Sequence record: NZ_CP072388.1
Direction: 5' to 3' (one strand)
From: a plasmid
Length of the DNA stretch: 64,000 nucleotides
The notes beneath the pieces were generated by a model that searched no databases, was not told the origin of the DNA, and saw nothing but the letters and a program-made list of their open reading frames with translations. The translations under genes were made by a program, and so were the position numbers. Shown here piece after piece: positions 36,564 to 52,399 of the stretch (its first letter is position 1; every line of letters starts with the position of its first letter).

Positions 36564-36935
36564 TCAGCCACCGGTGGTCTCCGTGAGCGAGGTTGCCAGC
36601 TGGCTGAGCGCGCCGGGGACCAGGGAGTAGTAGGCCCATCGGCCGCGTTGCTCGCGGTGGAGCAGGCCGGCGTCGACGAGGATCTTCAGGTGGTGGCTGA
36701 CGGTCGGCTGGGCGAGGCCGATCGGCTCGGTGAGGTCGCACACGCACGCCTCGCCGCCGTCGTGCGCGGCGACGATCGACAGCAGCTGCACGCGCGTCGG
36801 GTCGCCGAGCGCCTTGAAGATGCGGGCGAGGTCGCGCGCGGTCTCGGGGTCCGCGGCGTCGCGCACGAGCGGCGCGCAGCATCCGCCTGCCGCGGGAGCG
36901 TCCGGTGCCTCGAGGGTGAGCGCGGTGGTGGTCAT
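36564..36935 (-). CDS. arsR: ArsR/SmtB-family metalloregulator
   Basis: GDPTRVQLLSIV...CVCDL...LAQPTVSHHLKIL. Confidence 0.8.
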   Translation of the reverse strand: MTTTALTLEAPDAPAAGGCCAPLVRDAADPETARDLARIFKALGDPTRVQLLSIVAAHDGGEACVCDLTEPIGLAQPTVSHHLKILVDAGLLHREQRGRWAYYSLVPGALSQLATSLTETTGG

Positions 36936-36951: not shown

Positions 36952-37009
36952 GTATCGAAGTTTGTAGATACGTTGGCGTCCTATTTGTTGATCGAAGTTC
37001 GTCGATGCG
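36952..37009. promoter_or_regulatory. Candidate ArsR operator repeats in the divergent arsR/FMO intergenic region (gtatcgaag ... atcgaagttcgtcgatgcg)
   Basis: Relatively AT-rich. Repeated TATCGA(A/T)G half-sites also occur at 49364 and 52025. Confidence 0.35.
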
Positions 37010-37020: not shown

Positions 37021-38436
37021 ATGAGCGTTGAGCGTGCGGACCTGCCGGTCGTGGTGATCGGTGCGGGCCCGGTGGGGCTGGCCGCGGCGGCGCACCTGCT
37101 GGAGCGCGGTCTGGAGCCGCTGGTCCTCGAGGCGGGTGACGGCCCGGGTGCGGCGATCGCGTCGTGGGGTCATGTGCGGTTGTTCTCCCCGTGGCGGTAC
37201 GACGTCGACGCCGCAGCCCGGCGCCTGCTGGACCCGACGGGGTGGGTCGAGCCGGACCCCGACACCCTGCCGACCGGTGGGGAGCTCGTCGGGCGCTACC
37301 TGGTCCCGCTCGCCGCGACGCCGCAGATCTCCGCGCGCCTGCGCACCGGGACGCGGGTCCTGGCGGTCGCGCGCGACGGCGCGGACAAGACGCGTTCCCT
37401 CGGGCGCGAGCGGCAGGGCTACCGGGTCCGCACCGTCGGCCCGGACGGGCAGGTTCAGGACGTGCTGGCGCGCGCGGTGATCGACGCGTCAGGCACGTTC
37501 TCGACGTCGAACCCGCTGGGTGTCTCCGGTCTCCCGGCGGCGGGCGAGACGGGGGCCGCAGGGTATGTCACCGGACCGCTTCCGGACGTCCTCGGGTCGC
37601 AGCGCGACCGGTTCGCCGGCCGGGACACGCTCGTCGTCGGGATGGGGCACTCCGCGGCGAACACGCTGCTGGCCCTCGTCGAGCTCTCCGAGGCCGAGCC
37701 GGGCACCACGATCACCTGGGCGATCCGCGGCGGGTCCGCGCGGCGCCTGTTCGGCGGCGGCTCCGACGACGAGCTTCCCGCCCGCGGGCTGCTCGGCACG
37801 CGCCTGCGGGCCGCCGTGGAGGCTGGGCGCCTGACCCTGCTCACCCGGGTCTCGATCGAGCGCCTCGTCCCGGGCGGGGACACCGTGCAGGTGCTGGGGA
37901 CCGCCCGTGACGGGGCGCTGAACCTCGACGTCCACCAGATCGTCAACGCGACCGGGTTCCGCCCGGACCTCGACATGCTGCGCGAGGTGCGCCTGGACCT
38001 GGACCCGGTCGTGGAGGCGCCCACGGCGCTGGCCCCGCTCATCGACCCGAACCAGCACTCGTGCGGCACGGTGCCCCCGCACGGGGAGCAGGTGCTGTCC
38101 CACCCGGACGACGGGTTCTACCTCGCGGGCATGAAGTCCTACGGCCGCGCGCCGACGTTCCTGCTCGCCACGGGGTATGAGCAGGTGCGCTCGATCGCCG
38201 CAGCGCTGGCCGGGGACCGGACCGCGGCCGACGCGGTCGAGCTGAACCTGCCCGCGACCGGCGTCTGCTCGACCGATCTGGCCCTGGAGGCCGACGGCGC
38301 GAGCGCGGGCGGGTCGTGCTGCGGAACCGCGCCGGCCGAGCCGCAGCTGGTCACCCTCGGTGTCGGGGCGCCGGCCGGTGTCGGGTTCGCGACCGGCGTC
38401 GTGCACGGCCGGTCGGGCGACGGCCAGGACGCGTGA
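37021..38436 (+). CDS. FAD/NAD(P)-binding flavin monooxygenase (ArsO-like, tentative)
   Basis: VVIGAGPVGLAAAAHLLERG Rossmann motif, second GMGHSAANTL motif. Divergent from arsR. Confidence 0.7.
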   Translation: MSVERADLPVVVIGAGPVGLAAAAHLLERGLEPLVLEAGDGPGAAIASWGHVRLFSPWRYDVDAAARRLLDPTGWVEPDPDTLPTGGELVGRYLVPLAATPQISARLRTGTRVLAVARDGADKTRSLGRERQGYRVRTVGPDGQVQDVLARAVIDASGTFSTSNPLGVSGLPAAGETGAAGYVTGPLPDVLGSQRDRFAGRDTLVVGMGHSAANTLLALVELSEAEPGTTITWAIRGGSARRLFGGGSDDELPARGLLGTRLRAAVEAGRLTLLTRVSIERLVPGGDTVQVLGTARDGALNLDVHQIVNATGFRPDLDMLREVRLDLDPVVEAPTALAPLIDPNQHSCGTVPPHGEQVLSHPDDGFYLAGMKSYGRAPTFLLATGYEQVRSIAAALAGDRTAADAVELNLPATGVCSTDLALEADGASAGGSCCGTAPAEPQLVTLGVGAPAGVGFATGVVHGRSGDGQDA

Positions 38437-38939
38437 GTCTGACCCTGCGGATCGCGACCCCCGCCGACATGGCGGGGGTCGCGCGCATCTACGACCACTA
38501 CGTGACGACGTCGACCGCGACGTTCGAGCTCACCCCACCGGGCGAGACCGTGTGGGCGGACAAGCTCGTGGCCCTGCAGGGTGCGGGCTGGCCGTTCCTG
38601 GTCGCCGACCTCGACGGCGCCGTGTCCGGGTTCGCCTACGTGGGCCCGTGGCGCCCGCGCCCGGCCTACGCCCACACGGTCGAGGACACGATCTACCTCG
38701 ACCTCGCAGCGACCGGGCGCGGGATCGGGACCCGGCTGCTCGACCAGGTGCTCACCGACGCCGCAGCGGCCGGCGCACGAGAGGTGATCGCGGTCATCGC
38801 CGACGGCGACACCGCCGCATCACTCGCCCTGCACCGTCGCGCCGGGTTCACCGACGCCGGGCGCCTGGAACGCGTGGGCCGCAAGTTCGACCGGTGGCTG
38901 GGCACGACCCTGCTGCAGAAGTCCCTGCCCCTCCCGTAA
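38433..38939 (+). CDS. GNAT N-acetyltransferase (phosphinothricin/arsinothricin acetyltransferase ArsN-like)
   Basis: GTG overlaps FMO stop (GTGA). RIATPADMAGVARIYDHYV...GIGTRLL acetyl-CoA motif. Confidence 0.65.
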   Translation: MSLTLRIATPADMAGVARIYDHYVTTSTATFELTPPGETVWADKLVALQGAGWPFLVADLDGAVSGFAYVGPWRPRPAYAHTVEDTIYLDLAATGRGIGTRLLDQVLTDAAAAGAREVIAVIADGDTAASLALHRRAGFTDAGRLERVGRKFDRWLGTTLLQKSLPLP

Positions 38940-39000
38940 CCGCCCTGCGGGCACGGCAAACATAGATCGTGCTCTATCTGTCATCCGGGCTTCCGACCTC

Positions 39001-39022
39001 GTTCACCACACGTTCACATAGA
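39001..39022 (+). promoter_or_regulatory. PHO box: two direct repeat units GTTCACCacac GTTCACAtag upstream of pstS
   Basis: Matches the actinobacterial PhoP direct-repeat-unit consensus G(G/T)TCAYY. Located 65-85 nt upstream of pstS. Confidence 0.5.
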
Positions 39023-39085
39023 CCGCGTTCTATCGATCGTGTTGGTGGATGCGGGCGGGCGAAGGTCCCGCCCCGACGAGACGGG

Positions 39086-40069
39086 ATGACTTACGTGTTC
39101 AGACTTCCGCAGCGCACCGCTGTCGTGATCGGCGCGACGGGGCTGGTGCTCACGCTCGCCGCGTGTGGTGGCCAGAGCCAGGGAGCGACCGGCGATGGCG
39201 AGACATCGGGTGGCGGGCTCAGCGGGGAGGTCGTCATCGACGGCTCCTCGACGGTCGAGCCGCTGAGCTCGGCGGCGGCCACGTTGTTCCGCGACGAGGA
39301 GCCGGGTATCAACGTCACGGTCGCCACGTCGGGCACCGGTGGCGGGTTCGAGCGGTTCTGCGCCGGGGAGACCGACATCTCCGACGCCTCGCGTCCGATC
39401 AAGGACGAGGAGATCGCGGCGTGCGAGGACAACGGTGTGGAATTCACCGAGATCGTCATCGCCAACGACGGCCTGTCGGTGGTGGTGAACCCGGAGAACG
39501 ACTGGCTGGAGTGCATCACGACCGAGCAGCTCGCGACCATCTGGGGCCCAGACTCCGAGGGCACGGTGACCTCCTGGAGCCAGGTCGACCCGGAGTTCCC
39601 GGACGAGGCGCTCGCGCTGTACGGGGCGGGCACGGACTCGGGCACGTTCGACTACTTCACCGAGGCGATCAACGGCGAGGAGGGCGCGATCCGCACGGAC
39701 TACACCCCGTCGGAGGACGACAACCTCACGGTGCAGGGCGTCTCTGGCGCGGTCGGCGCGATGGGGTTCTTCGGCCTGAGCTACGCCGAGGAGAACGCCG
39801 ACTCGATCAAGCTCCTCGCCGTGGACAACGGTGACGGGTGCGTCGTCCCGTCCAAGGAGACGGTGCAGGACGGCACGTACTCGCCGCTGGGCCGCCCGCT
39901 GTTCATCTACGTCAACAACGCGAAGTACGCCGAGAACGAGGCGCTGCGTTCGTTCGTCGACTTCTACCTCGCCAACGAGGAGGAGATCGCCGCGGACGCG
40001 CTGTTCATCGACCTGACGGACGAGCAGCAGCAGACCGCGGCGGACGAGCTCGCGAGCCTGGTCGGCTGA
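39086..40069 (+). CDS. pstS: Phosphate ABC transporter substrate-binding lipoprotein
   Basis: Lipobox LAAC. GSSTVEPL...TSGTGGGF...DISDASRPIK. Confidence 0.85.
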   Translation: MTYVFRLPQRTAVVIGATGLVLTLAACGGQSQGATGDGETSGGGLSGEVVIDGSSTVEPLSSAAATLFRDEEPGINVTVATSGTGGGFERFCAGETDISDASRPIKDEEIAACEDNGVEFTEIVIANDGLSVVVNPENDWLECITTEQLATIWGPDSEGTVTSWSQVDPEFPDEALALYGAGTDSGTFDYFTEAINGEEGAIRTDYTPSEDDNLTVQGVSGAVGAMGFFGLSYAEENADSIKLLAVDNGDGCVVPSKETVQDGTYSPLGRPLFIYVNNAKYAENEALRSFVDFYLANEEEIAADALFIDLTDEQQQTAADELASLVG

Positions 40070-40080
40070 CCGGCGCCTCG

Positions 40081-41055
40081 ATGAGCACCCCTCGTTCCAC
40101 GGTGGCCGGTCCGGTGCGTGCGCCGGGCCGGCCACCGGCCCTGACCGAGCACGGCCCGGCCATCACCCGCCGGCGCGCGCGCCGCGGTGAGGCGCTGGTG
40201 CGCCTCCTGCTGCGCCTGGCGGCCTGGTTGTCGATCCTGATCACGGTCGGCATCGTGATCTCGCTGCTGACACCCGCACTGCAGTTCTTCGCCGAGGTCT
40301 CCGTCGTGGAGTTCCTCACCGGGACTCGCTGGGCGCCGCAGTTCGCCGACCCGACCTTCGGGGTCCTGCCCCTGGTCACGGCCACGGCCTGGACGACGCT
40401 GATCGCGCTGGCGGTGGCGGTCCCGTTCGGGCTGGGCGCGGCGATCTACCTTGCCGAGTACGCGCGCCCCCGCGCCCGCAAGATCCTCAAGCCGATCCTC
40501 GAGCTGCTGGCCGGCGTGCCGACCGTGGTGTTCGGCTTCTTCGCCCTGTCGTTCGTCGCCCCGACGGTGCTGCGGGACTGGCTGAGCATCGAGGTCGGCA
40601 CGTTCTCGATCCTGGCCGCCGGGCTGGTCATGGGCGTGATGATCATCCCGACCGTCGCCTCCCTGTCCGAGGACGCCATGTCCGCGGTGCCCGCCGCACT
40701 GCGCCAGGGCTCGGCCGCGCTGGGCGCCAACCGGATGCAGACCTCGCTGCGCGTGGTCTTCCCCGCGGCGCTGTCCGGGATCGTCGCCGCGGTGGTGCTC
40801 GGCATCTCCCGTGCGATCGGGGAGACGATGATTGTCGCGATCGCTGCCGGCGCCCGGCCTCAGATGGTCACCGACCCGACCATGGAGGGCGCCACCATGA
40901 CCGGGTTCATCGCCCGCATGGCCCTGGGCGACGCCCGGGTCGGGTCGCTGGAGTACAACACCCTCTTCGCCGTGGGCCTGCTGCTGTTCGCCCTGACCCT
41001 CGTGGTCAACGCGATCAGCATCCAGCTCGTGCGCCGCTTCCGCCAGGAGTACTGA
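40081..41055 (+). CDS. pstC: Phosphate ABC transporter permease
   Basis: Six TM helices, ABC permease EAA-like loop. Confidence 0.85.
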   Translation: MSTPRSTVAGPVRAPGRPPALTEHGPAITRRRARRGEALVRLLLRLAAWLSILITVGIVISLLTPALQFFAEVSVVEFLTGTRWAPQFADPTFGVLPLVTATAWTTLIALAVAVPFGLGAAIYLAEYARPRARKILKPILELLAGVPTVVFGFFALSFVAPTVLRDWLSIEVGTFSILAAGLVMGVMIIPTVASLSEDAMSAVPAALRQGSAALGANRMQTSLRVVFPAALSGIVAAVVLGISRAIGETMIVAIAAGARPQMVTDPTMEGATMTGFIARMALGDARVGSLEYNTLFAVGLLLFALTLVVNAISIQLVRRFRQEY

Positions 41056-41963
41056 TGGCCCTGCACACCCCCGCCGTGGCGACCCAGCAAGCTCGCCTGG
41101 CCACCGGTAACCGGTCCAAGGAACGCACCCCGACCTCGGTGCTCTTCCTGGCCCTGCTGTGGATCTCGCTGTTCGTCGCGTTCGCCACCCTCGTCGCGCT
41201 GATCGTCACGACGATCGCCCAGGGCGCCGACCGGCTCGACTCGCGCCTGTTCACCGAGTACCCGTCCTCGCGGCCCGAGGAGGCCGGGGCGCGCCCCGCG
41301 ATCCTGGGGTCGCTGTGGGTGATCGGCACCACCGCCGCCCTCGCGATCCCGCTCGGGGTCGCCGCGGCCGTGCACCTGGAGGAGTTCGCCGACCGGCGCC
41401 ACTGGTTCAACCGGTTCATCGAGCTCAACATCCAGAACCTGTCGGCCATCCCGTCGATCATCTACGGCATGCTCGCGATCGGGACCCTGGCCTTGATCGG
41501 CGTCGGGAACAAGAACATCGTGATCGGCGGCGCGCTCGCCCTGGCGCTGCTCATCCTGCCCGTCATCATCATCGCCACCCGTGAGGCGTTGCGCGCCGTC
41601 CCGCGCGAGCTGCGCCACGGGTCGCTCGCTCTAGGCGCGACCGAGCTGCAGACCACCTGGCGCATCACGTTGCCCGCCGCGGTCCCGGGCATCGCCACCG
41701 GCACGATCCTGGCCCTGTCCCGCGCGCTCGGCGAGGCCGCGCCGCTGCTGCTGCTGGGTGCCCTGGTGTTCATCTCCTTCGACCCCAACGGGCTGCTCTC
41801 GGGCTTCACCACCATGCCGATCCAGATCTATGGCTGGACCAACGCACCCCAGGCCGGGTTCCACGAGCTCGCGGCCGCGACCTCGATCCTGCTCGTGGGG
41901 ATCCTGCTGGCCATGAACGCGCTGGCCATCATCATCCGCAACCGCTACCAGCGCCGCTGGTGA
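41055..41963 (+). CDS. pstA: Phosphate ABC transporter permease
   Basis: ATG overlaps the pstC stop by 1 nt. Typical PstA topology. Confidence 0.85.
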
Positions 41964-41986
41964 GACCACCCGAGGACCACCCCACC

Positions 41987-42868
41987 ATGACCACCACCGG
42001 CACCTCCGCGAAGGCCACCATGTCCTCCAGCACCCAGATCTCCACTCGCCCCGCCCACAGCGAGCACCGCGAGATCCCTGCCGAGCCCAACCCGGTCCTG
42101 CAGTGCGAGGACGTCGACGTCTACTACGGCTCCTTCCGCGCCGTGCGCGACGTGTCCCTGGCGTTCGGGCACAACGAGATCACGGCCCTCATCGGCCCGT
42201 CCGGGTGCGGGAAGTCCACCATCCTGCGCTCCTTGAACCGGATGAACGACCTGGTCGAAGGCGCGCGCGTGACCGGGTCCGTACGGTACTGGGGCCAGGA
42301 CATGTATGGCGCCGGCGTGGACCCGATCGAGGTGCGCCGCCGCATCGGGATGGTCTTTCAAAAGCCCAACCCGTTCCCGAAGTCGATCTACGACAACATC
42401 GCCTACGGCCCGAGAGTCACGGGGATGAAGGTCGCGTCGATGGACGACCACGTCGAGCAGGCACTGACCCGCGCCGCCCTGTGGGACGAGGTCAAGGACA
42501 AGCTCAAGCAGTCCGCCTACGGCCTGTCCGGTGGGCAGCAGCAGCGCCTGTGCATCGCCCGCACGATCGCCGTCGAGCCCGACGTGATCCTCATGGACGA
42601 GCCGTGCGCGTCGCTCGACCCCATCGCGACCATGCGCATCGAGACCCTCATGACCGAGCTGCGCGACCTGTACACGATCGTCATCGTCACCCACAACATG
42701 CAGCAGGCGGCCCGCGTCGCCGACCGCACCGCGTTCTTCACCGCCGCCGTCGACGAGACCACCGGTGACCGCACGGGCGAGCTCGTCGAGTTCGACCACA
42801 CCGCGAAGATCTTCGAGAACCCGGCCGACCAGCGCACCGAGGACTACATCACCGGACGCTTCGGCTGA
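41987..42868 (+). CDS. pstB: Phosphate ABC transporter ATP-binding protein
   Basis: GPSGCGKST Walker [14 protein letters not shown] signature, VYYGSFRAV. Confidence 0.9.
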
Positions 42869-42888
42869 CCACCCACCAGGAGCCGACG

Positions 42889-43644
42889 ATGACCGTCACC
42901 CTTCCCCCGCGCGGTCCCAGCACCCAGCGCGAGGCCACCGCGCTCGGGCCCCAGACCGTGCGCGCCGTCCTCGTCGACCCCACGTTCGACCCTCGCGAAG
43001 GGCTCGTGACCGCGATGCGCGAGCAAGGCATCACGCTCGAGCCCGTGAGCGACCCGCTGCGCGGCCTCGCCCGCGCCTCGCTCGCACACACCCGCGCCGT
43101 CGTGGTCAGCGCAGCGGTGGCCGACCCGATGCTCAGCGCCTTCGTCGCCGTGGTGCGCGACGAGCTCGACCTGCCCGTCCTGCTCGCCCACCGGGCCGGC
43201 GACGCCGACCGGCTCGGCGGCGCGGTGCTCGCCGGGGCCCGGCCCGTCGTCGACCAGCCCTACCAGCCCGCGCGCATGGCCGCGACCCTGCTCGGCCTCG
43301 CCGGGAACCAGGAACCAGGGATCGTGCGCGTCGGATCGCTCGAGCTCGACCCGGACGCCTACGACGCACGCCTGCACGGACGCGGCATCGACCTGAGCAC
43401 GCTGGAGTTCGAGGTCCTGCACGAGCTGGCGACCCACCCCGACCACGTGATCCCGCGCGAGCGGTTCACCCACCGCTACTGGCCGCGTTCACCCGACCCG
43501 GACGGAACCCTGGCCGCGGTCATCTCCCGCCTGCGCCGCAAGCTCGACGCCCATCACCTCGCCGGCGCCATCCACACCGTGCGCGGGATCGGCTTTCGCC
43601 TGGAGAGCGCCGTCCTCGCCGCATACTCACACCCAAACCCATAG
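42889..43644 (+). CDS. Atypical OmpR/PhoB-type response-regulator-like protein
   Basis: C-terminal winged helix (LSTLEFEVLHELATHPDHVIPRERF...GIGFRLE). N-terminal receiver-like domain lacks a clear phospho-acceptor Asp. Occupies the usual phoU position. Confidence 0.55.
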   Translation: MTVTLPPRGPSTQREATALGPQTVRAVLVDPTFDPREGLVTAMREQGITLEPVSDPLRGLARASLAHTRAVVVSAAVADPMLSAFVAVVRDELDLPVLLAHRAGDADRLGGAVLAGARPVVDQPYQPARMAATLLGLAGNQEPGIVRVGSLELDPDAYDARLHGRGIDLSTLEFEVLHELATHPDHVIPRERFTHRYWPRSPDPDGTLAAVISRLRRKLDAHHLAGAIHTVRGIGFRLESAVLAAYSHPNP

Positions 43645-43665
43645 ACGTCGATCTATCATGATGGG

Positions 43666-44079
43666 GTGGCGAGCCGACTCCTCGACCGGGACGTGAGCGC
43701 GACCGTCGCCGTCGCGGCGTCGGCCGAGCAGACGTGGCGTGCGCTCCTGGTCGTCCTGGGGATCGACGCCGAGGTACCGGGTGTGCCGGCGGCCTACGGG
43801 GCCATGGCCGGGCGTGTGCGCGACGCTGTGCCGGGGGACGGCTTGGTGGTGCGTGGCCGTCTGGGCGCGCGCACGTACGAGTTCTCCGCCCATCTCGTCG
43901 CCCGCGGTGTGTGGTGCGACCTGACGGTGGACGCAGCCCCGGACGACCTTGTCGGGGCAGTAGAGGGCGGGCGCTGGCGGCACCACCTGGCCCGGCGTCG
44001 GGTCCGGCAGCTCGTGCGAGATCTGGTGACCGATGTCGCGCGCACGGCGGGTAGCGGCGCCGGTCCGGTCTCGCGCTGA
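43666..44079 (+). CDS. Possible SRPBCC/START-fold small protein
   Basis: Weak. Composition is coding-like with no diagnostic motif. Confidence 0.25.
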   Translation: MASRLLDRDVSATVAVAASAEQTWRALLVVLGIDAEVPGVPAAYGAMAGRVRDAVPGDGLVVRGRLGARTYEFSAHLVARGVWCDLTVDAAPDDLVGAVEGGRWRHHLARRRVRQLVRDLVTDVARTAGSGAGPVSR

Positions 44080-44093: not shown

Positions 44094-45005
44094 TCAGGGG
44101 GTGATCTCGCGTACGAGGTCGTGCACGCGCGCGGTGATGTCGTCGACGATGCGCACGACGTCCTGAAGTGGGCGACCGGAAGGGTCCTCGACGGTCCAGT
44201 CGACGTAGCGCCGGCCAGGGAAGACCGGGCAGGCGTCGCCGCAGCCCATGGTGACCACGACGCCTGAGGCGCGCACGACCTCGTCGGTGAGGGGGCGGGG
44301 AAACTCGGTCAGCGCGTCGAGGCCGCGTCGCGCGAGCTCGGTGCGCACGACGGGGTCGATCGAGGCGGCGGGCACCGACCCGGCAGTGCGCACGCGCACC
44401 TGGTCGCCGGCGATCGAGCGCAGCACCGCGGCGGCGATCTGGGACCTGCCGGCGTTGCGCACGCACACGAACAGCACGTCCTGGCGCGGCGCGAGGCCGT
44501 GCCGGTCGAGGGTGAGGGCGGCGAGCCGGTCGGCGGCGAAGCGCGCGGTGAGCGCGGGCAGGTGGCGGCGCACGGTGGCGCGGGCGGCGAGCAGGTCGTA
44601 GCTGTCGGTGACGAACCGGGCGACGGTCTCGGGCGCGAGGACGTCGGTGTAGGTGGCGCTCAGGTCGGCGGTGATCCGTCGCAGGAGGCGGTCGTGGTCC
44701 CCGGGTGGGACGTGCGCGGCGCCGGACCGGTCCGGCGCGCCGATCGCGGCGCCGCCGAATCGGGCCAGGGCGTCCGGGGTCGGGCGGTATCGCGCGTCGG
44801 GGCCGTGTCCGACGCGGACCAGGACACCGACGTCGCTCATGGCCTGCAGGTGCGCGCCGACGGCGTCGAGGGCGCCACCGGGTCCGGCCAGGTCTCGGGC
44901 GCGGGGCTGTCCACTCGGGTCGGTGATGATCAGGGCCAGGAGCCGCAACCTGTCGGGATCGGCCATCGTGGCGGCCTGGGCGGCGCGCAGGTCGTCCGGG
45001 CTCAT
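44094..45005 (-). CDS. ArsR-HTH / LMW-PTP arsenate reductase fusion protein (ArsRC)
   Basis: N-terminal LRLLALI wHTH. C-terminal VLFVCVRNAGRSQ...TMGCGDACP (ArsC/LMW-PTP). Confidence 0.75.
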   Translation of the reverse strand: MSPDDLRAAQAATMADPDRLRLLALIITDPSGQPRARDLAGPGGALDAVGAHLQAMSDVGVLVRVGHGPDARYRPTPDALARFGGAAIGAPDRSGAAHVPPGDHDRLLRRITADLSATYTDVLAPETVARFVTDSYDLLAARATVRRHLPALTARFAADRLAALTLDRHGLAPRQDVLFVCVRNAGRSQIAAAVLRSIAGDQVRVRTAGSVPAASIDPVVRTELARRGLDALTEFPRPLTDEVVRASGVVVTMGCGDACPVFPGRRYVDWTVEDPSGRPLQDVVRIVDDITARVHDLVREITP

Positions 45006-45024
45006 CGGGGCACGCCCCGCCCGG

Positions 45025-45381
45025 TCAGCGCAGCAGGTCCGCGATCGCGTGCAGACGGACGGGGACGATGGAGTACCAGACCTCGCGTCCCACGGGGTCG
45101 CGGGTGACGATGCCCGCCTCGGTCATCACCTTCAGGTGGTGGGACACGGTGGGCTGGCGCAGGCCGAGCGCGCGGGTCAGGTCCGCGACGCGGGCACGGG
45201 CATCGGCGCTGTGGTGGATCAGGCTCAGCAGCTGTAGGCGGGTGGGGTCGGAGACGACCCGCAGCAGCGTGGCGGTGTCCTCGGCCTGCTCGCGGCTCAG
45301 CGTCGTGCGCAGGGCGGGCCCCGGCGCGCGTTCGGCCCGCCCCTGCAGGGGCGGGGACGACTCGCTTGCCGGGGCGCTCAC
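45025..45381 (-). CDS. arsR: ArsR-family regulator
   Basis: LLRVVSDPTRLQLLSLI...LGLRQPTVSHHLKVM. Confidence 0.8.
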   Translation of the reverse strand: MSAPASESSPPLQGRAERAPGPALRTTLSREQAEDTATLLRVVSDPTRLQLLSLIHHSADARARVADLTRALGLRQPTVSHHLKVMTEAGIVTRDPVGREVWYSIVPVRLHAIADLLR

Positions 45382-45403
45382 CCATCGAGGATAGCCGTCC
45401 GCG

Positions 45404-45844
45404 TCAGGCGGCCGGGGTGGGCGCGACCGGCGTGACGCCGAGCTCGCCCAGCAGGGTCAAGACACGGCCGCGGATCTCGTCGCGAATGGGGCGCACAGAC
45501 TCGATGCCCTGCCCTGCCGGGTCGGCGAGCTCCCAGTCCTCGTAGCGCTTGCCGGGGAAGATCGGGCAGGCGTCGCCGCAGCCCATGGTGATGACGACGT
45601 CGGACGCCTGGACGGCCTCGGTGGTGAGGACCTTGGGCTGCTCGGCGCGGATGTCGATGCCCTCTTCGAGCATGGCCTCGACGGCGACGGGGTTGATCTG
45701 GTCCGCCGGGGCCGAGCCGGCGGAGCGGACCTCGACGGCGCCGCCGGACAGTGCGCGAAGGTAGCCGGCGGCCATCTGGGATCGGCCGGCGTTGTGGACG
45801 CAGACGAACAGGGCTGACGGCTTCGCGGTGGTGGTGTCGGTCAT
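45404..45844 (-). CDS. arsC: Arsenate reductase, LMW-PTP type
   Basis: ALFVCVHNAGRSQMA...ITMGCGDACP. RBS aggaga. Confidence 0.85.
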   Translation of the reverse strand: MTDTTTAKPSALFVCVHNAGRSQMAAGYLRALSGGAVEVRSAGSAPADQINPVAVEAMLEEGIDIRAEQPKVLTTEAVQASDVVITMGCGDACPIFPGKRYEDWELADPAGQGIESVRPIRDEIRGRVLTLLGELGVTPVAPTPAA

Positions 45845-45870
45845 GGCGTTCTCCTGGTTGCTGGTGGATC

Positions 45871-46881
45871 TCAGGCGATGGTCAGGGTCAGGTCGGGCAG
45901 CAGGTCGGCGAGCAGGCCCCGTACTCGCTCGTCGAGGTCGTCGCGGATCGCGGCGACCCCTGCGGGGGAGGCCAGGGCGGGGTCGCCGACGAGCCAGTCC
46001 TCGTACCTCTTGCCGGGCAGCACGGGGCAGACGTCGCCGCAGCCCATGGTGATGACGACATCGGCGGCGCGGACGGCGTCGTCGGTCAGGGGCTTGGGGA
46101 AGGCTTCGTCGTCGTCGGTGCCGAGCTCGGTCAGGGCCTCGAGCACCCCGTCGTGGATGTCGGCGGCAGGCGTGGACCCGGCGGAGCGGACCACGACGCG
46201 GTTCCCGGCGTAGTGCTGCAGCAGGGCGGCGGCGAGCTGGGAGCGTCCGGCGTTGGCGACGCAGACGAACAGCACTTGCGGTCGGGCGTCGCCGGAGCGG
46301 GTGAGGTCGGCCAGTCTCTGGCGGGCGAACCGTGCGGTGAGCGGCACCAGGTGGGCCGAGACCTTCGCCGAGCGGGCCAGGTCGGTGTAGGACTCGCGGA
46401 CCACGCGTTGCACGACGTCGAACCGGACGTCGGGAAACGCTCCGGCGAGGTCCTCGGCGAGGTGGTCGAGCGCCGGGTCGACGTCGTCCAGCCCCGCCAG
46501 GACGGCCGCACCGTGTGCAGAGCCCAGCGCGGCCGGGGCGAACGAGTCGAGCAGCGTCGTCACCGCGGCCTTGTAACCGCCGGTGATGCGGTACCAGACC
46601 CAGGTGCCGCGCCGTTCGGAGGTCAGCACGCCGACGTCGCGCAGCACCTTGAGGTGGTGCGACACGGTGGGCTGTGACACGTCGGTGAGGGCGGCGAGGT
46701 CGCACACGCACGCCTCCCCGGCGGGTGCGGTCGCGATGAAGGACAGCATCCGTAGCCGCAGCGGCTCGGCGAGGGCCTTGAGCGTGGTGGCGACGGCGCC
46801 GGCGACCTCGGTGCCGATCGCGTGGGACTCGATCTGCGGGGCGCAGTCCGGGTCCGTGACAGTCAAGGGTGTGGTGGTCAT
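45871..46881 (-). CDS. ArsR-HTH / unknown middle domain / LMW-PTP arsenate reductase fusion (ArsRC, second copy)
   Basis: CVCDL...PTVSHHLKVL wHTH. ~100 aa linker domain. VLFVCVANAGRSQ...TMGCGDVCP. Confidence 0.75.
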   Translation of the reverse strand: MTTTPLTVTDPDCAPQIESHAIGTEVAGAVATTLKALAEPLRLRMLSFIATAPAGEACVCDLAALTDVSQPTVSHHLKVLRDVGVLTSERRGTWVWYRITGGYKAAVTTLLDSFAPAALGSAHGAAVLAGLDDVDPALDHLAEDLAGAFPDVRFDVVQRVVRESYTDLARSAKVSAHLVPLTARFARQRLADLTRSGDARPQVLFVCVANAGRSQLAAALLQHYAGNRVVVRSAGSTPAADIHDGVLEALTELGTDDDEAFPKPLTDDAVRAADVVITMGCGDVCPVLPGKRYEDWLVGDPALASPAGVAAIRDDLDERVRGLLADLLPDLTLTIA

Positions 46882-47984
46882 GACCTCACCTCTTCCAGCT
46901 CGGGTGTTCGAGTCGTGGGGGCGTAGGGGTCGACGGCGAACCAGCGGCGCGCGAGCCACAGGGAGACGTAGACGAGGCCGACGAGGACGGGGACCTCGAT
47001 GAGCGGGCCGACGACGCCGGCCAGGGCCTGACCTGACGTGGCGCCGAACGTGCCGATGGCGACGGCGATCGCGAGCTCGAAGTTGTTGCCCGCAGCGGTG
47101 AAGGCGAGCGTCGTGGAGCGTGCGTAACCGAGCGCGAGCATCTTGCCGACGACGATGCCGATGCCCCACATGGCGGCGAAGTACACCAGCAGCGGCAGCG
47201 CGATGCGGGCCACGTCGAGCGGGTGGGAGGCGACGGCCTCGCCCTGCAGGGCGAAGAGCAGCACGATCGTGAACAGCAGTCCGTACAGCGCCCACGGCCC
47301 GACCTTCGGCAGGAACCGGTCCTCGTACCAGGTGCGGCCCTTGGCGCGTTCGCCGACCAGGCGGGAGGCGAACCCGGCGGCCAGCGGGACACCGAGGAAG
47401 ACGAGGACGTTGAGCGCGATCTGCCCGACCGAGACGTCGAGGCCCTGGGTGTCCAGACCGAGCCATCCGGGCAGCACGGTGAGGTAGAAGTAGCCGAGCA
47501 GCGAGAACGCGACGACCTGGAAGGCGGAGTTGATCGCGACCAGCACCGTGGCCGCCTCCCGATCCCCGCACGCGAGGTCGTTCCAGATCACGACCATCGC
47601 GATGCAGCGGGCCAGGCCGACGATGATCAGCCCTGTGCGGTACTCGGGCAGGTCGGGCAGGAAGGCCCAGGCAAGGGCGAACATCAGCGCGGGACCGACC
47701 AGCCAGTTCAGTACCAGCGAGGAGACCAGGAGCCTCTTGTCGCCGGTGACCGCGCCGACGCGGTCGTAGCGGACCTTGGCCAGGACCGGGTACATCATGA
47801 CGAGCAGGCCGAGCGCGATCGGGACCGAGATCCCGCCGACCTCCATCGCCGTGAGCACCTCGGACAGGGCGGGGACGAACCGGCCCAGGACGAGACCGGC
47901 GACCATCGCGAGGCCGATCCACAGCGGCAGCCACCGGTCCAGCGTGGACAGGCGCCCGCGCGTGGCGGTCGTGGGGTCGCTCAC
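46878..47984 (-). CDS. acr3: Arsenite efflux transporter ACR3 family
   Basis: Ten TM helices. ACR3 signature stretches (LNWLVGP, ARCIAMV). GTG overlaps the trxA stop. Confidence 0.9.
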   Translation of the reverse strand: MSDPTTATRGRLSTLDRWLPLWIGLAMVAGLVLGRFVPALSEVLTAMEVGGISVPIALGLLVMMYPVLAKVRYDRVGAVTGDKRLLVSSLVLNWLVGPALMFALAWAFLPDLPEYRTGLIIVGLARCIAMVVIWNDLACGDREAATVLVAINSAFQVVAFSLLGYFYLTVLPGWLGLDTQGLDVSVGQIALNVLVFLGVPLAAGFASRLVGERAKGRTWYEDRFLPKVGPWALYGLLFTIVLLFALQGEAVASHPLDVARIALPLLVYFAAMWGIGIVVGKMLALGYARSTTLAFTAAGNNFELAIAVAIGTFGATSGQALAGVVGPLIEVPVLVGLVYVSLWLARRWFAVDPYAPTTRTPELEEVRS

Positions 47985-48304
47985 GCGAGGACCTCCTCGA
48001 TCTCGGCGACCAGCGCCTGCTTCGGGCGTGCGCCGACGACGGACTTCACCAGCTGGCCGTCGGAGTAGAAGTTCAGCGTCGGGATCGACACGACGCCCGC
48101 CGCCGCCACGGTCTTCGGGTTGGCGTCGGCGTCGAGCTTGGCGATCGTGAGCCTGCCCTCGTACTCCTGCGCGAGCTCGGCCAGGATCGGGGCGACCTGG
48201 CGGCACGGGCCGCACCACGTGGCCCAGATATCCACCAGCACAGGCACTTCGGAGGCCAGGACCACCTCGTCGAAGGTGTCGTCGGTGACGGTCACGGTGC
48301 TCAT
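47981..48304 (-). CDS. trxA: Thioredoxin
   Basis: WATWCGPC active site, 107 aa. Confidence 0.9.
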
Positions 48305-49323
48305 CGGATCTCCTCCAGCGCCAGGGGCAGCTCGTCGGGGTTCGGGGTCTCGGGCGTGCCGGCCAGGTTCGCAAGGCCGGCGGCGTCGGCGAGCTCGGTG
48401 AGGTAGGCCTGGGCGTCCAGGGCGGCGGAGGCGCCGGTCCCGGCGGCCGTGATGGCCTGCCGGTAGGTGTGGTCGACCACGTCGCCGGCGGCGAACACGC
48501 CCGACAGGTTGGTGCGGGTGGAGCGGCCCTGGACCAGGATGTAACCGTCGTCGTCGAGGTCGACCTGGCCCTTGACCAGGTCGGTGCGCGGCTCGTGGCC
48601 GACGGCGACGAACAGGCCCGTCGCGGGCAGCTCGCGCTCGGCGCCGGTCACGGTGTCGCGCAGCGTCAGGCCCTCGACCTTGTTCTCTCCGCCGATCGCG
48701 GCGACCTCGCTGTTCCAGGCGAACTCGATCTTCGGGTCGTTCAGGGCGCGGTCGGCCATGATCTTCGACGCACGCAGCTCCCCACGGCGGTGCACGACGG
48801 TGACCTTGGACGCGAACCGGGTGAGGAACGTGGCCTCCTCCATCGCGGAGTCCCCGCCGCCGACGACCGCGATGTGCTGGTCGCGGAAGAAGAACCCGTC
48901 GCAGGTGCCGCACCAGGACACCCCGCGCCCGGACAGCCGCTCCTCCTCGGGCAGGCCGAGCTTGCGGTAGGCGGACCCGGTGGTCAGGATCACCGCCCGG
49001 GCCCGGTAGGTGTCGCCGCTGCCGGTGTGGAGCGTCTTGACCGGGCGGTCCAGCTCGAGGGACGTCACGTCGTCCCACACGATGCGCGCCCCGAACTTCT
49101 CGGCCTGGGCCCGCATGGCGTCCATGAGCTCAGGGCCTTGGATGCCGTCCGCGAACCCGGGGAAGTTCTCCACCTCGGTCGTGGTCATCAGCGCGCCACC
49201 GGCGGTGACCGAGCCGGCGACCACCACCGGCGCCAGGCCGGCACGGGCGGCGTAGATCGCCGCGGTGTACCCGGCGGGGCCCGACCCCACGATCACGATC
49301 TCCTGAACCTCTTGCATCGACAT
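48301..49323 (-). CDS. trxB: Thioredoxin-disulfide reductase
   Basis: [16 protein letters not shown] redox centre, GGGDSA NADPH motif. Confidence 0.9.
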
Positions 49324-49343
49324 GCCTCTATGTTGACACCGGT

Positions 49344-49386
49344 CGATGCAGCGCGCAAGGTGGATATCGATGAACGTCGATGCAAC
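49344..49386. promoter_or_regulatory. Candidate ArsR operator repeats (tcgatgca ... atatcgatgaacgtcgatgca) in the trxB/DUF2180 divergent region
   Basis: Shares the TATCGATG motif with 36952 and 52025. Confidence 0.35.
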
Positions 49387-49398
49387 AGGAAGTGGATC

Positions 49399-49656
49399 AT
49401 GAACTGTTACGAGCACGCGCAGGAAGGCCGCGAGACGGTCGCCGTGGGGGTCTGCCCGCGCTGTGGCGCCGCGGTCTGCGCCGAGCACGCGGGGGAGTGT
49501 CGGGTCGAGATCGTTCGGAGCAACGGTGTCGGGTCGCCGACCCTCGGGCAGCACCGGGTCGTGTGCTGCGACCGGTGCCGCGCCTCTGGAGCTTGTGCCG
49601 GCGTGTGGCGGGCGGGCGTCGACGGCGCGCGTGAGCCGGCTGGTCGCGGCGTGTAG
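49399..49656 (+). CDS. DUF2180-family zinc-ribbon protein (paralog 2)
   Basis: MNCYEHAQ...[16 protein letters not shown] aggaag. Confidence 0.5.
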
Positions 49657-49705
49657 CGCTCAGTTCACCGTGCTCGGAAGAAGCCCTGGTGGGTCGCCGG
49701 GGCGG

Positions 49706-50926
49706 TCATGCAGCGTTTGGGCGGTGCACCCCGGTCGACAGGGCGATGAGTGCCGCGAGGGCGGCGGACGCGGCAAGGACCGCGAACGTCGCCGGGTAGG
49801 AGCCGGTGGCGCCGGTGAACGCGGCGGCCGCCCAGGGCGCCAGTGCCATCGCGAGCGTGGTGGGGGCGTTGAGGATCCCGAACAAGACGCCGTACGAGCC
49901 CGATCCCCACCGGTCGCTGATCGCGGTGGACTGCAGCAGCGTGAATGCGCCGCGCGCCACGCCGAGGGCGACGGCGGCGGCGATGAGCGCGGTGGCCGGT
50001 CCGTCGAGCAGCCCGACGATGGCGATCGTCAGGGCCGAGGTGCCGAGGAGCGCGCTGGCGCGGACGGGTGGTGTGGTGCGCGCGGCGAGCGATCCGTACG
50101 CGATGCGCCCCAGGAGCTGACCCGCGCCGGACAGGCCGAGCGCCCACGCGGCCGCAGCCGCTGTCAGGCCGCGCCAGGTCAGCATCGGCACCAGATGGAT
50201 GGTGGCGGCGAACATCGCGAACGCGCCCAGCGCGGTGGCGCAGGTCAGGGCGAGGAACGCTCGAGAGCGCGCGATCGTTCGCCACCCGCCTCCGCCGTGT
50301 GCGTGCTGGGCGGTCTCGAGGGGCGGCCAGGGTGCGCGCAGGCCGATTGCGTGCGCGGGGATGGTCGTCAGGGCGAGCAGGACGGCCAGGAAGAGGTAGG
50401 TCTGGCGCCATCCCGCGTGCTGGACCAGGGCGGCGGTCAGGGGCGCGAAGATCGTGCTCGCGAGCCCTGCCACCAGGGTCAGCACGAGCAGGGCCCGGGT
50501 CCGCGCGGGCCCGTACCAGCGGGTGATCGCGGTGAACGCCGGGGCGTAGAGCACCATCGACTGGGCGACGCCGACCATGACCCAGGCGGCGAGGAACCAA
50601 CCCAGGGACGGGGCAAGCGCGACGGCGATCACGGCGACGCTCGCCAGGACGGACCCAGTGGTCATCACCGCCCGGGGACCGTGGTGATCGATGCGTCTGC
50701 CCACGAGCACGCCCGCGCCGGCTGCGACGACCAGGGCCGCGGAAAACGCGGCCGTCGCGCTGGCTGGCGACCAGCCGGTGTCGGCCGTGATGGCCGGCAA
50801 GGCGACCGGGAAGGAGTAGTACAGGACGCCCCACCCCACGACCTGGGTCAGGCACAAGGCCGCGAGGGTGCCGCGTGGGCCGGTGCGCAGACCGGCGTCG
50901 CCTCGGCCCCTCTGCGTGGTGGTCAC
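49706..50926 (-). CDS. MFS transporter (ars-associated, ArsK/ArsJ-like candidate)
   Basis: 12 TM helices, MFS. Embedded in the ars cluster. Confidence 0.7.
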   Translation of the reverse strand: MTTTQRGRGDAGLRTGPRGTLAALCLTQVVGWGVLYYSFPVALPAITADTGWSPASATAAFSAALVVAAGAGVLVGRRIDHHGPRAVMTTGSVLASVAVIAVALAPSLGWFLAAWVMVGVAQSMVLYAPAFTAITRWYGPARTRALLVLTLVAGLASTIFAPLTAALVQHAGWRQTYLFLAVLLALTTIPAHAIGLRAPWPPLETAQHAHGGGGWRTIARSRAFLALTCATALGAFAMFAATIHLVPMLTWRGLTAAAAAWALGLSGAGQLLGRIAYGSLAARTTPPVRASALLGTSALTIAIVGLLDGPATALIAAAVALGVARGAFTLLQSTAISDRWGSGSYGVLFGILNAPTTLAMALAPWAAAAFTGATGSYPATFAVLAASAALAALIALSTGVHRPNAA

Positions 50927-52005
50927 GACCGAGTCAGCGTACGCACGGTGCGTGCGTGCGCGCTGACCGCCGCGGCGACGTGGGCGGCGTCGCGGTGCAC
51001 GCCGCGCAGCGTGTTCGAGGCGAACGAGCGCTGCAGCTCCAGCCCCACGAACCCCAGTCCCGGCCGGGCGAGCGAGATCCCGCCGCGCTGGCGCGGCATA
51101 CCGCGCTCGTCCAGCAAGGCCAGGTCACCGAGGTAGTCCAGCGCGGGCCGGTACCCGGTGGCCAGCACGAGGGCGTTGACGCGTTCGCGTGCCCCGTCTG
51201 CCCACACCACCCCGTCCTGGTCGACCGCGCTGAACATCGCGCGCGAGTCCACGGTGCCGTTCGCCAGCGCCTCGCGATAGCTGCCGGCGTCCAGGACCAG
51301 CGGCCCACGCACCACGCGTCGAAGCACCGCCGGGGGGAAGCGGTCGAAGCCGGTGACGCGGAACCAGAAGTGCACGTCCCGCCCCAGCGGGCGCTGGGTC
51401 GCGAACACGACGGGCTGGCGCGTCGCGAGGGTCACGTCGCTCACTTGCGCGAGCTCGTGCGCGATCTGCACCCCCGAGTTCCCGCCACCGACGACCACGA
51501 CGCGCTCCCCGGCGAACGACGAGGGATCGCAGTACTGGGCCGCGTGCACCACCCGGCCCGTGAAGTGCTCCAGCCCAGCAACGCTCGGACGCACAGGGTT
51601 GGCGAACGACCCCGTCGCCGCGATCACCCCGCTCGCGTCGAGCTCGACCCCGTCGCCCGTGCGCACCACGAACCCGGTCCCCGCCGGCTCGACCCCCACC
51701 ACCCGGGTTCCCGTCCGCACCTCGACCCCGAGGTGGTCGGCGTACCGGTGCAGGTGCTCGACCACCTCGTCCCGCGCCGGGTACCGGTCCGGGTCCCCCC
51801 CGAAGCCGAACCCGGGGAAGCCGCTGTACCGGGCCGGGGAGAACAGCCGCAGGCTGTCGTAGTACGACGGCCACGACCCCACCGGTCGGTCGCCCGCCTC
51901 CAGCACGAGCGGCTCGAGACCTCGCTCGCGCACGGCCCTGGCCGCGGCCAGGCCCGACTGGCCGGCACCGCTGATGATCACGGGGAGCGTCGTTGACGTC
52001 GTCAC
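50923..52005 (-). CDS. FAD/NAD(P)-binding oxidoreductase (ArsO-like flavin monooxygenase family)
   Basis: IISGAGQSGLAAARAV and VVGGGNSGVQIA dinucleotide motifs. Divergent from arsR. Confidence 0.7.
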   Translation of the reverse strand: MTTSTTLPVIISGAGQSGLAAARAVRERGLEPLVLEAGDRPVGSWPSYYDSLRLFSPARYSGFPGFGFGGDPDRYPARDEVVEHLHRYADHLGVEVRTGTRVVGVEPAGTGFVVRTGDGVELDASGVIAATGSFANPVRPSVAGLEHFTGRVVHAAQYCDPSSFAGERVVVVGGGNSGVQIAHELAQVSDVTLATRQPVVFATQRPLGRDVHFWFRVTGFDRFPPAVLRRVVRGPLVLDAGSYREALANGTVDSRAMFSAVDQDGVVWADGARERVNALVLATGYRPALDYLGDLALLDERGMPRQRGGISLARPGLGFVGLELQRSFASNTLRGVHRDAAHVAAAVSAHARTVRTLTRS

Positions 52006-52015
52006 ATCCGTAACG

Positions 52016-52063
52016 TATCGATGATTCGCAATATGTCAATACGACGATGGATCGAGATACGCT
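52016..52063. promoter_or_regulatory. Candidate ArsR operator (cgtatcgatg ... cgatggatcgagatacg) in the divergent intergenic region
   Basis: GTATCGATG plus an inverted GATACG, 6-bp arms. Confidence 0.35.
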
Positions 52064-52069
52064 CCAGGG

Positions 52070-52399
52070 ATGAGCACGCCGACAAGCCGCCCAGCGGTCG
52101 TGGAAGCTGCGCCGCTCGCGCTGGCCGAGGCGACGCACGACTTTCTCAGCGCGTTGGCGAGCCCCACACGCCAGCGTGTCCTGCTGCTGTTCGCGCGCGG
52201 CGGCGAGCTCGCGGTCGGGGAGGTGGCCGAACGTGCAGGCATCAGCCAGCCCACTGCATCCCAGCACCTGCAGATCCTGCGCCGTGGTGGCATTGTGACC
52301 TCGCGCCGCCAAGGCCGGGTCGTGCTCTACCGCGCCGACCGCGACGGCGTGGCGCGTGCGCTGAGCGACCTGCAGGCCTATCTCCAAGCGTGCTGCTGA
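52070..52399 (+). CDS. arsR: ArsR-family regulator with C-terminal Cys pair
   Basis: LASPTRQRVLLLF...GISQPTASQHLQIL. Ends QACC. Confidence 0.8.
   Translation: MSTPTSRPAVVEAAPLALAEATHDFLSALASPTRQRVLLLFARGGELAVGEVAERAGISQPTASQHLQILRRGGIVTSRRQGRVVLYRADRDGVARALSDLQAYLQACC

Follow-up and report, generated by a model that had tools for sequence, protein, structure and literature searches.

Why should one arsenic resistance cluster encode two proteins in which an ArsR-type regulator is fused to an ArsC arsenate reductase? The question is raised by a plasmid of Cellulosimicrobium cellulans (146,188 bp; record NZ_CP072388.1). A stretch of 64,000 nucleotides of this plasmid, called the window below, was analysed (G+C about 71%). 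The two fusion genes, arsRC1 and arsRC2, belong to a composite arsenic-resistance island at 36.5-52.4 kb of the window, on what is a multi-metal-resistance plasmid (Table 1). A first-pass annotation, made from the sequence, had let the cluster begin at 44094, and missed the pstSCAB operon and the adjoining regulator gene (39095-43644) of the same island. It had also treated the fusion as duplicated. The two proteins have only 45% identity, belong to different families, carry different N-terminal domains and are parts of different modules. Module A is a detoxification operon in which ArsRC1 is predicted to be repressor and enzyme at once. Module B combines a cysteine-less ArsR, ArsRC2, the regulator and the pst operon, and may link arsenic to phosphate uptake. 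We estimate the probability of this model as a whole at about 0.7.

Genes were called from third-position GC and checked with Pfam and NCBIfam. By exact protein matches, the GenBank proteins of the window stretch are QUC01963-QUC01981. A megablast search of PLSDB gave partial matches only (75-79% identity), and an identical record was not found there. Gene order was compared in 80 loci (L numbers), which are an arbitrary subset and not the nearest relatives, so that synteny counts below are examples, not frequencies.

Two families of ArsR-ArsC fusions

The cluster contains three LMWPc (low molecular weight phosphotyrosine phosphatase) domains, as had been annotated, and two of them are within three-domain proteins. 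The segment in front of these two had been described as an uncharacterised linker of ~100 aa. It contains PF21234 / NF046112, the "three-helix bundle dimerization domain" of Cg_ArsC1', which is an arsenate reductase of Corynebacterium glutamicum that depends on thioredoxin (55.1 bits in ArsRC1 and 69 bits in ArsRC2, cutoff 27). Three helices are modelled in this part of both fusions; the stand-alone ArsC lacks this domain. Cg_ArsC1' (PDB 3T38) matches both fusions from the helical domain to the C-terminus (E 2.5e-53 for ArsRC1, 1.1e-55 for ArsRC2), and the AlphaFold2 model of ArsRC2 superimposes on 3T38 with template modelling scores of 0.89-0.91. It has the same three-helix N-terminal domain and the same LMWPc core with a P-loop cysteine and a CGDxC pair. 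However, it has no ArsR domain, whereas ArsRC1 has an intact and ArsRC2 a degenerate ArsR domain in front. For the stand-alone ArsC, the match to 3T38 covers the catalytic core (E 8e-42).

The P-loops read C207VANAGRS in ArsRC1, C181VRNAGRS in ArsRC2 and CVHNAGRS in ArsC, and the CX5R(S) loop is invariant in the alignments. All three reductases have the distal CGD(V/A)C pair, which is 99-100% conserved and aligns with the same motif of 3T38. The catalytic cysteines are Cys207, Cys281 and Cys285 in ArsRC1 and Cys181, Cys255 and Cys259 in ArsRC2, and in both fusion families this triad shows little or no variation.

The two fusions are colinear over 298 residues at the identity given above, and are therefore old paralogues from distinct families with different N-terminal domains. 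A winged helix-turn-helix (HTH) domain had been assigned to both. This holds for ArsRC1, whose ArsR domain matches HTH_5 (55.3 bits) and NF033788 (88.8 bits, cutoff 55). Among 118 homologues there is virtually no variation in its recognition helix SQPTVSHHLKVL or in the CVC of Cys58-Val-Cys60-Asp (99-100% conserved); the N-terminal Cys13 is 82% conserved in the same set. Of the arsenite-binding cysteine triad, the retention of which had been left to be checked, ArsRC1 has the CVC pair, with Ala at the position of the third α3 cysteine of the R773 ArsR site. Cys13 could be a substitute third thiolate. The AlphaFold2 model of ArsRC1 (predicted local distance difference test, pLDDT, 81; predicted template modelling score, pTM, 0.62) contains a flexible hinge at ~125-128 between the ArsR and helical domains. 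The four Pfam domains of ArsRC1 recur in close homologues from Cellulosimicrobium, Oerskovia, Isoptericola, Cellulomonas, Demequina and others, and the architecture is common to hundreds of Micrococcales proteins.

The N-terminal domain of ArsRC2, by contrast, has no Pfam HTH match, and the only NCBIfam match is NF041413 (E 1.4e-4; 22 bits, cutoff 155). Its likeness to ArsR shows only in profiles and in the predicted fold. The protein consists of a cysteine-less ArsR-fold domain (residues 1-89), PF21234 (104-164) and LMWPc (176-301). Comparison of the family N-terminus with six ArsR sub-alignments by hhalign gave a probability of 96-98% for each; these values are too alike to derive the domain from the lineage of the cysteine-less ArsR specifically. 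The AlphaFold2 model is compact (pLDDT 92, pTM 0.88), and the elements of the N-terminal domain follow in the order α1-α2-α3-αR-β-β-α5. Profiles and model together suggest a diverged ArsR fold. Where SQPTVSHHLKVL would align, the residues are variable and acidic; their consensus is roughly D-V-A-D-V-E-Q-H-L-E-A-M. The domain is free of cysteine here and in 106 of the 117 homologues. On the other hand, residues M14, R19, L39, H52, L53, P75, D78, R82, F83 and G84 are at least 90% conserved. As these residues are kept while the DNA-reading and cysteine positions are lost, the domain is evidently selected for something other than DNA reading or arsenite binding. The substrate channelling to the sensor that had been proposed for the fusions therefore fits ArsRC1, where CVC is kept, and cannot apply to ArsRC2, with its cysteine-free N-terminal domain and degenerate helix. 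ArsRC2 as a whole is most likely still a thioredoxin-coupled reductase.

A phmmer search with the N-terminal domain of ArsRC2 alone returned 28 cluster representatives among 1.84 billion. No clearly different architecture was found among them: the strongest matches are proteins of ~300 aa with the domain at the N-terminus, and weaker ones are short, ArsR-sized proteins.

A third type of fusion was observed in Agromyces, Microbacterium, Leifsonia and relatives (L006, L008 at 5768-6685, L009, L011, L012, L014, L017, L019, L022-L024, L027). Here an ArsR domain with an intact RQPTVSHH but no CVC precedes the three-helix bundle and the reductase. As these proteins have no α3 thiolates, their reductase domain may be where the signal enters, and this hints that sensing by the reductase domain could be more general.

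The detoxification operon

Family assignments bear out the reading of the cluster as an expanded ars operon with ArsR-ArsC fusions and a dedicated thioredoxin pair, and also the gene order trxB-trxA-acr3-arsRC1-arsC-arsR-arsRC2, all on the minus strand. The ATGA/GTGA overlaps described for this series are found at the first three junctions (trxB/trxA ATGA, trxA/acr3 GTGA and acr3/arsRC1 ATGA, 4 bp each). The later genes are separated by gaps of 26 nt (arsRC1 to arsC), 22 nt (to arsR) and 19 nt (to arsRC2). The order trxB-trxA-acr3-arsRC1-arsC is also found in Microbacterium loci L016 and L033, and L016, from Microbacterium thalli, reproduces the layout of the whole window.

Arsenate is predicted to be reduced by the Cg_ArsC1'-class domains of ArsRC1, ArsRC2 and the stand-alone ArsC through a three-cysteine disulfide cascade. 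TrxA and TrxB of the operon would recycle these reductases, and Acr3 would export the arsenite. Three reductases of the thioredoxin-coupled class that adjoin their own trxA/trxB pair form a coherent set. The case for thioredoxin dependence is circumstantial, namely that trxA and trxB stand in the same operon with 4-bp overlaps. ArsRC1 would be both a repressor and an enzyme, with its ArsR domain bound to candidate palindromes at the trxB promoter (see below), and would be freed from DNA when arsenite binds Cys58/Cys60, perhaps together with Cys13. Reduction, recycling, export and repression by ArsRC1 with release by arsenite are all well supported by homology. As ArsRC1 would produce arsenite beside its own sensor, the repressor could respond to arsenate. 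Such a fusion is geometrically natural, because ArsR and the helical domain of ArsC1' are both dimeric.

The ArsR/ArsRC2/pst module

The arsR gene at 45025 is the conserved partner of arsRC2, and its product has no cysteine in any of the orthologues examined. Four ArsR genes had been counted in this region. An ArsR-type domain is in fact carried by five genes of the island, three stand-alone and two fusions, and four of these domains have an intact recognition helix. Convergent to arsRC2 lies the stretch with pstSCAB and the regulator gene (39095-43644). It encodes a phosphate ABC transporter, all four subunits of which pass the NCBIfam cutoffs, and an OmpR/PhoB-family protein, TRC. The latter aligns over its full length to PrrA (1YS6). 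However, the position of the phospho-acceptor Asp is not conserved, and the receiver half is not recognised by Pfam.

The arrangement with arsR and arsRC2 convergent to the TRC gene was found in ~13 genomic contexts, usually with pstSCAB. They represent Myceligenerans, Isoptericola, Pimelobacter, Aeromicrobium, Agromyces, Microbacterium (two species), Cellulomonas, Georgenia, Promicromonospora and two metagenomic lineages. In L001 and L002 the module stands without any other ars gene nearby. The pairing was also recovered from the ArsR side: for 29 of the 80 nearest ArsR clusters the contig also carries an ArsRC2-family match, 13 being on contigs shorter than 10 kb, and in all three contexts obtained in this way arsRC2 is beside the ArsR gene and the regulator gene is convergent. 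In L092 a Tn3 insertion occupies the place where pst would stand. In L090/L091 (7404-8284) arsRC2 carries a frameshift and pstB is reduced to its last ~80 codons, while the cysteine-less arsR and the regulator gene are both intact; this looks like a module in decay inside an integrase-flanked element. This metagenomic lineage is widespread, with the partner ArsR listed in 179 blocks of the collection.

Homologues of TRC (L001-L005, L086, L087, L089) are always encoded at the end of an island-linked pst operon, and the gene stays beside the arsR-arsRC2 pair even where pst is lost (L090, L092). TRC appears to be an orphan tied to this pair, and is probably independent of phosphorylation.

According to the model, the cysteine-less ArsR would be the DNA-binding partner at two operators of the pstS promoter, and perhaps at others. 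The arsenic input, which this ArsR is itself unable to sense, would come from ArsRC2. The outcome would be induction of a phosphate importer specific to the arsenic island under arsenate stress.

Candidate operators

The aligned upstream regions of pstS from five genera contain two copies of a 5-N6-5 palindrome by a PHO-box-like repeat. The pattern CATMGA-N6-KCKATS was derived from this alignment and searched for, with at most one mismatch, in the window and in 100 shuffles of it. The window has 12 strand matches, that is, six sites; the expectation from the shuffles is 3.3, the largest shuffle count is 7, and none of the 100 reached 12. All six sites are inside the island. Five are in promoter or intergenic positions, namely one between arsR (36564) and the FAD oxidoreductase gene, two before pstS and two in the shared control region of trxB and the DUF2180 gene, and the sixth (43640-43657) overlaps the stop codon of the TRC gene. 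The layout is the same as that of a published ArsR consensus, ATCAA-N6-TTGAT (PMC9137774). The arrangement of the pstS promoter recurs in L001, L002, L003 and L005, and in other genera the motif was found upstream of pstS, of the partner arsR, of acr3 and of the FAD oxidoreductase gene. A palindrome specific to pst and the cysteine-less ArsR is ruled out by the presence of the same motif at the trxB and arsR/FAD-oxidoreductase promoters.

In Myceligenerans (L001, 8956) a palindrome is present at the equivalent junction between arsRC2 and the regulator gene, and there is no open reading frame (ORF) of the 137-aa type found here. The starts of this ORF and of the cysteine-less arsR are built alike (43640-43668 and 45381-45405): a -10-like TATCNT, a 6-nt spacer (GATGGG or CGATGG) and GTG. 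This suggests that both may have leaderless transcripts.

Alternative explanations

An artefactual origin of the fusions, through a missed stop codon or a sequencing frameshift, is virtually out of the question. The two places at which such an error had been suspected, 44500-44600 and 46500-46600, are inside genes with no internal stop or N, and third-position GC is 0.89-0.99 in a single frame across each fusion gene, these places included. Identical proteins have been deposited independently (QUC01974.1 for ArsRC1; P0121, 100% identical, for ArsRC2). Among the matches listed, each fusion has over 100 homologues from many genera that agree with it in length and domain order, and the colinearity of ArsRC1 with ArsRC2 also speaks for genuine fusions. 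A different function of the fused LMWPc domains has more in its favour: they might be protein phosphatases, specific for tyrosine or arginine, with a regulator, for instance the adjacent OmpR-type protein, as their substrate. The Pfam family is indeed that of the low molecular weight phosphotyrosine phosphatases, ArsRC2 carries the NCBI name "low molecular weight phosphatase family protein", and the scores against NCBIfam arsenate-reductase equivalogs are all under the cutoffs. However, the top structural and sequence matches are arsenate reductases throughout, Cg_ArsC1' being the first, and the two distal cysteines by which the reductase disulfide cascade is defined have both been kept. The thioredoxin/thioredoxin-reductase pair is in the same operon, and the neighbouring regulator has no phospho-acceptor Asp. 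A phosphatase role is thus very improbable.

The role of ArsRC2 beyond catalysis can be read in two ways. One possibility is an undescribed two-protein arsenate switch. The cysteine-less ArsR would bind the operators, the pseudo-ArsR domain of ArsRC2 would contact or sequester it, and the reductase domain would read arsenate, by active-site occupancy or by the disulfide state that turnover leaves behind. Jointly with the pseudo-receiver regulator, this would induce an island-specific, arsenate-discriminating Pst when arsenate competes with phosphate, and the cysteine-less ArsR-ArsC fusions of Microbacteriaceae would be its one-polypeptide version. In this complete form the proposal is speculative and, in our judgement, rather unlikely. 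The main rival takes ArsRC2 for an enzyme only, with the N-terminal domain as a structural or dimerisation appendage; the cysteine-less ArsR would be an ordinary repressor that answers another signal or is displaced indirectly, and its adjacency to ArsRC2 and pst would reflect co-inheritance on mobile arsenic islands. This is quite possible, although short of an even chance. The invariant cysteine triad and P-loop point to selection on the enzyme, the predicted structure of ArsRC2 is compact (pTM 0.88), and the module is on mobile DNA (a plasmid here, the Tn3 insertion in L092, the integrase in L090). One homologue, that of Antribacter, has no partner. On the other hand, the N-terminal domain is under purifying selection across orders while its DNA-reading residues are free to vary, which fits a retained protein-contact function. 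The pairing with the cysteine-less ArsR was found from both search directions, and the module also occurs without other ars genes nearby (L001, L002).

Several observations weigh against the model of two modules as we have put it. The four ArsR-type proteins of the island with an intact helix share it in near-identical form (QPTVSHHLK), and the palindromes are therefore not attributable to one protein. The operator before the cysteine-less arsR of the window is degenerate and retains the right half-site only; this half-site doubles as a -10-like TATCCT, 6 nt before the GTG start of the gene. In two of the ten module loci no palindrome with at most one mismatch was found upstream of pstS. The Antribacter homologue of ArsRC2 (L088) stands apart from pst as well as from an ArsR partner, and the compact model of ArsRC2 is equally compatible with an N-terminal domain that is a purely structural appendage. 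Finally, every functional step of the model is read from sequence.

Comparison with known systems

A similar gene set is reportedly present in Microbacterium sp. A33, where the cluster described by Achour-Rokbani et al. in 2010 is said to be arsT-arsX-arsRC2-ACR3-arsC1 and the fusion is said to act as a repressor. In both systems one actinobacterial operon thus unites the genes for thioredoxin reductase and thioredoxin with a fusion of ArsR to ArsC, with acr3 and with a separate arsC. In the present island these genes (trxB, trxA, arsRC fusion, acr3, arsC) are on one strand and overlap or are closely spaced. The differences are that acr3 precedes the fusion here, that the cysteine-less arsR and arsRC2 are appended, and that a pst operon is convergent.

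The arsenite ligands of the Corynebacterium glutamicum ArsR (CgArsR) are Cys15, Cys16 and Cys55. This protein (PDB 6J0E) is the closest solved relative of the cysteine-less ArsR (E 1e-15) and shares its recognition helix. However, the single CgArsR cysteine within aligned residues 22-103 faces Ala in the cysteine-less ArsR.

Fusions of ArsR and ArsC have been recorded in L. ferriphilum, Microbacterium and Sinorhizobium (PMC6205960). Among actinobacterial ArsC sequences the fusions form two clusters, and their pairing with arsT/arsX (trxB/trxA) has been described (PMC6514093), so that arsT/arsX operons and fusions are already on record for Actinobacteria (PMC6514093, PMC6205960). The fusions of Leptospirillum ferriphilum, Sinorhizobium and Paracoccus likewise unite regulator and reductase in one polypeptide (PMC6205960, PMC11672702), but belong to proteobacterial or Nitrospira lineages. 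The Paracoccus ArsRC fusion improves arsenate detection, which by analogy supports a coupling of product to sensor in ArsRC1 (PMC11672702). With respect to all this the main cluster is ordinary: it is one more actinobacterial ars operon with ArsR-ArsC fusions and its own thioredoxin system, and its proteins are already deposited and named.

Genes of the pst/pho systems are common in arsenic islands (PMC3834237). In Agrobacterium tumefaciens 5A, ArsR1 represses the linked pstS1/phoB1 through two sites (PMC7965956). The present island resembles this system in having a second, island-linked pst operon, two ArsR sites in its promoter (predicted here) and an adjoining gene for a PhoB-type regulator. 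However, the Agrobacterium ArsR senses arsenite and its regulator is a normal PhoB, whereas the candidate ArsR of the island has no cysteine and is paired with a pseudo-ArsR reductase, and the regulator is of OmpR type with a pseudo-receiver. In the open-access literature we found no description of an ArsRC2-type pseudo-ArsR domain, of a cysteine-less ArsR partner, or of a link to a pseudo-receiver regulator and pst.

Flanking genes and setting of the island

The features of the island are collected in Table 1. It is composed of modules that are found apart in other Actinobacteria and are joined here, the arsR-arsRC2 pair standing 22 nt behind arsC.

Table 1. Genes and candidate regulatory sites of the arsenic island and its border (positions in the window)
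Feature	Position	Strand	Evidence and remarks
arsR, 123 aa, N-terminal CC pair and α3 CVC	36564..36935	-	HTH_5 61 bits; NF033788 99.7 bits (cutoff 55); divergent from FAD oxidoreductase
Weaker second palindrome TATCGAAGTTTGTAGATA	~36955-36972	.	arsR/FAD-oxidoreductase divergent region
Candidate ArsR-type operator palindrome CATCGACGAACTTCGATC	36990..37007	.	arsR/FAD-oxidoreductase divergent promoter
FAD-dependent oxidoreductase, 471 aa	37021..38436	+	Pfam Pyr_redox_3/DAO; QUC01964.1
GNAT acetyltransferase, ArsN1b/phosphinothricin acetyltransferase-like	38433..38939	+	NF040504 122.7 bits (below cutoff 210)
pstS promoter region	38961..39034
Palindrome CATAGATCGTGCTCTATC	38961-38978		pstS promoter region
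PHO-box-like direct repeat GTTCACCACAC/GTTCACATAGA	39001-39022		pstS promoter
Palindrome CATAGACCGCGTTCTATC	39017-39034		pstS promoter region
pstS	39095-40069	+	TIGR02136 278.5 (cutoff 206.6)
pstC	40081-41055	+	TIGR02138 263.2 (cutoff 196.45)
pstA	41055-41963	+	TIGR00974 244.3 (cutoff 193.45)
pstB	41960-42868	+	TIGR00972 385.1 (cutoff 343.2)
TRC, OmpR/PhoB-family regulator with pseudo-receiver, 251 aa	42889..43644	+	Pfam: Trans_reg_C only
Palindrome CATAGACGTCGATCTATC	43640..43657	.	Overlaps TRC stop codon; 8 nt before 43666 ORF
Hypothetical ORF, 137 aa	43666..44079	+	No family match; Cellulosimicrobium only; coding status uncertain, third-position GC ambiguous
arsRC2, 303 aa	44094..45005	-	Degenerate ArsR-fold domain, PF21234, LMWPc
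arsR, 118 aa, no cysteine	45025..45381	-	Intact RQPTVSHHLKVM recognition helix
arsC, 146 aa	45404..45844	-	Cg_ArsC1'-class catalytic core without helical domain; CX5R loop and CGDAC pair
arsRC1, 336 aa	45871..46881	-	ArsR domain, flexible linker (~125-130), three-helix bundle, LMWPc
acr3, arsenite efflux permease, 368 aa	46878..47984	-	TIGR00832 426.3 bits (equivalog cutoff 282.8)
trxA, thioredoxin, 107 aa	47981..48304	-	TIGR01068 110 bits (cutoff 96.8)
trxB, thioredoxin-disulfide reductase, 340 aa	48301..49323	-	TIGR01292 393.8 bits (cutoff 343.45)
trxB/DUF2180 divergent control region	49315..49382	.	Palindromes 49315-49332 (overlaps trxB ATG) and 49365-49382
DUF2180 protein, small, Cys-rich, 85 aa	49399..49656	+	PF09947 24.9 bits (cutoff 22.2)
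MFS (major facilitator superfamily) transporter, ArsK-like	49706..50926	-	NF033733 172.4 bits (below equivalog cutoff 400)
ArsO-like flavin monooxygenase	50923..52005	-	NF040505 232.6 bits (below equivalog cutoff 425); 4-bp overlap with MFS gene
arsR, 109 aa, C-terminal Cys-Cys pair	52070..52399	+	Divergent from ArsO-like/MFS pair
Large tyrosine recombinase, 842 aa	52427..54955	-	Phage_integrase 70.9 bits; flanks island, directly right of cluster

To the left, the pair of the four-cysteine arsR and the FAD oxidoreductase gene, often with an MFS gene, recurs in actinobacterial loci L007, L038, L041, L063, L069 and L078. To the right, the first-pass annotation had described the DUF2180, MFS, ArsO-like and last arsR genes as divergent from the operon. 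This is true of the DUF2180 gene and the last arsR, whereas the ArsO-like and MFS genes, which overlap each other by 4 bp, run on the minus strand like the main operon. The DUF2180 gene is probably regulated by arsenic, because it is divergent from trxB and shares a control region with two predicted operators. C-terminal cysteine pairs of ArsR are associated with methylarsenite sensing. The module of the arsR with such a pair and the ArsO-like and ArsK-like genes (49706-52399), conserved also in L036, L057 and L005, could be an organoarsenical branch.

Two further blocks of the window concern other metals. At 2741-10110 a Tn5053/Tn402-like transposition module encodes a TniA-like transposase, TniB, TniQ and a resolvase. 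Next to it come merR (minus strand), merA and merB, and the whole is a transposon for mercury and organomercury resistance on the same plasmid. The block at 16505-23145, with two DUF305 genes, a heavy-metal P-type ATPase gene and a lower G+C (0.66-0.68), is probably for resistance to copper or another metal.

Significance

In practical terms, the island serves as a plasmid-borne example that is well resolved and has its operator motif mapped. Of interest for follow-up is the module of cysteine-less ArsR, pseudo-ArsR reductase, pseudo-receiver regulator and pst, a putative regulatory unit that is well conserved. Should sensing reside in the reductase domain, the signal detected and coupled to phosphate uptake would be arsenate itself and not arsenite. 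If true, this would bear on how cells discriminate between arsenate and phosphate, and may provide parts for arsenate-specific biosensors.

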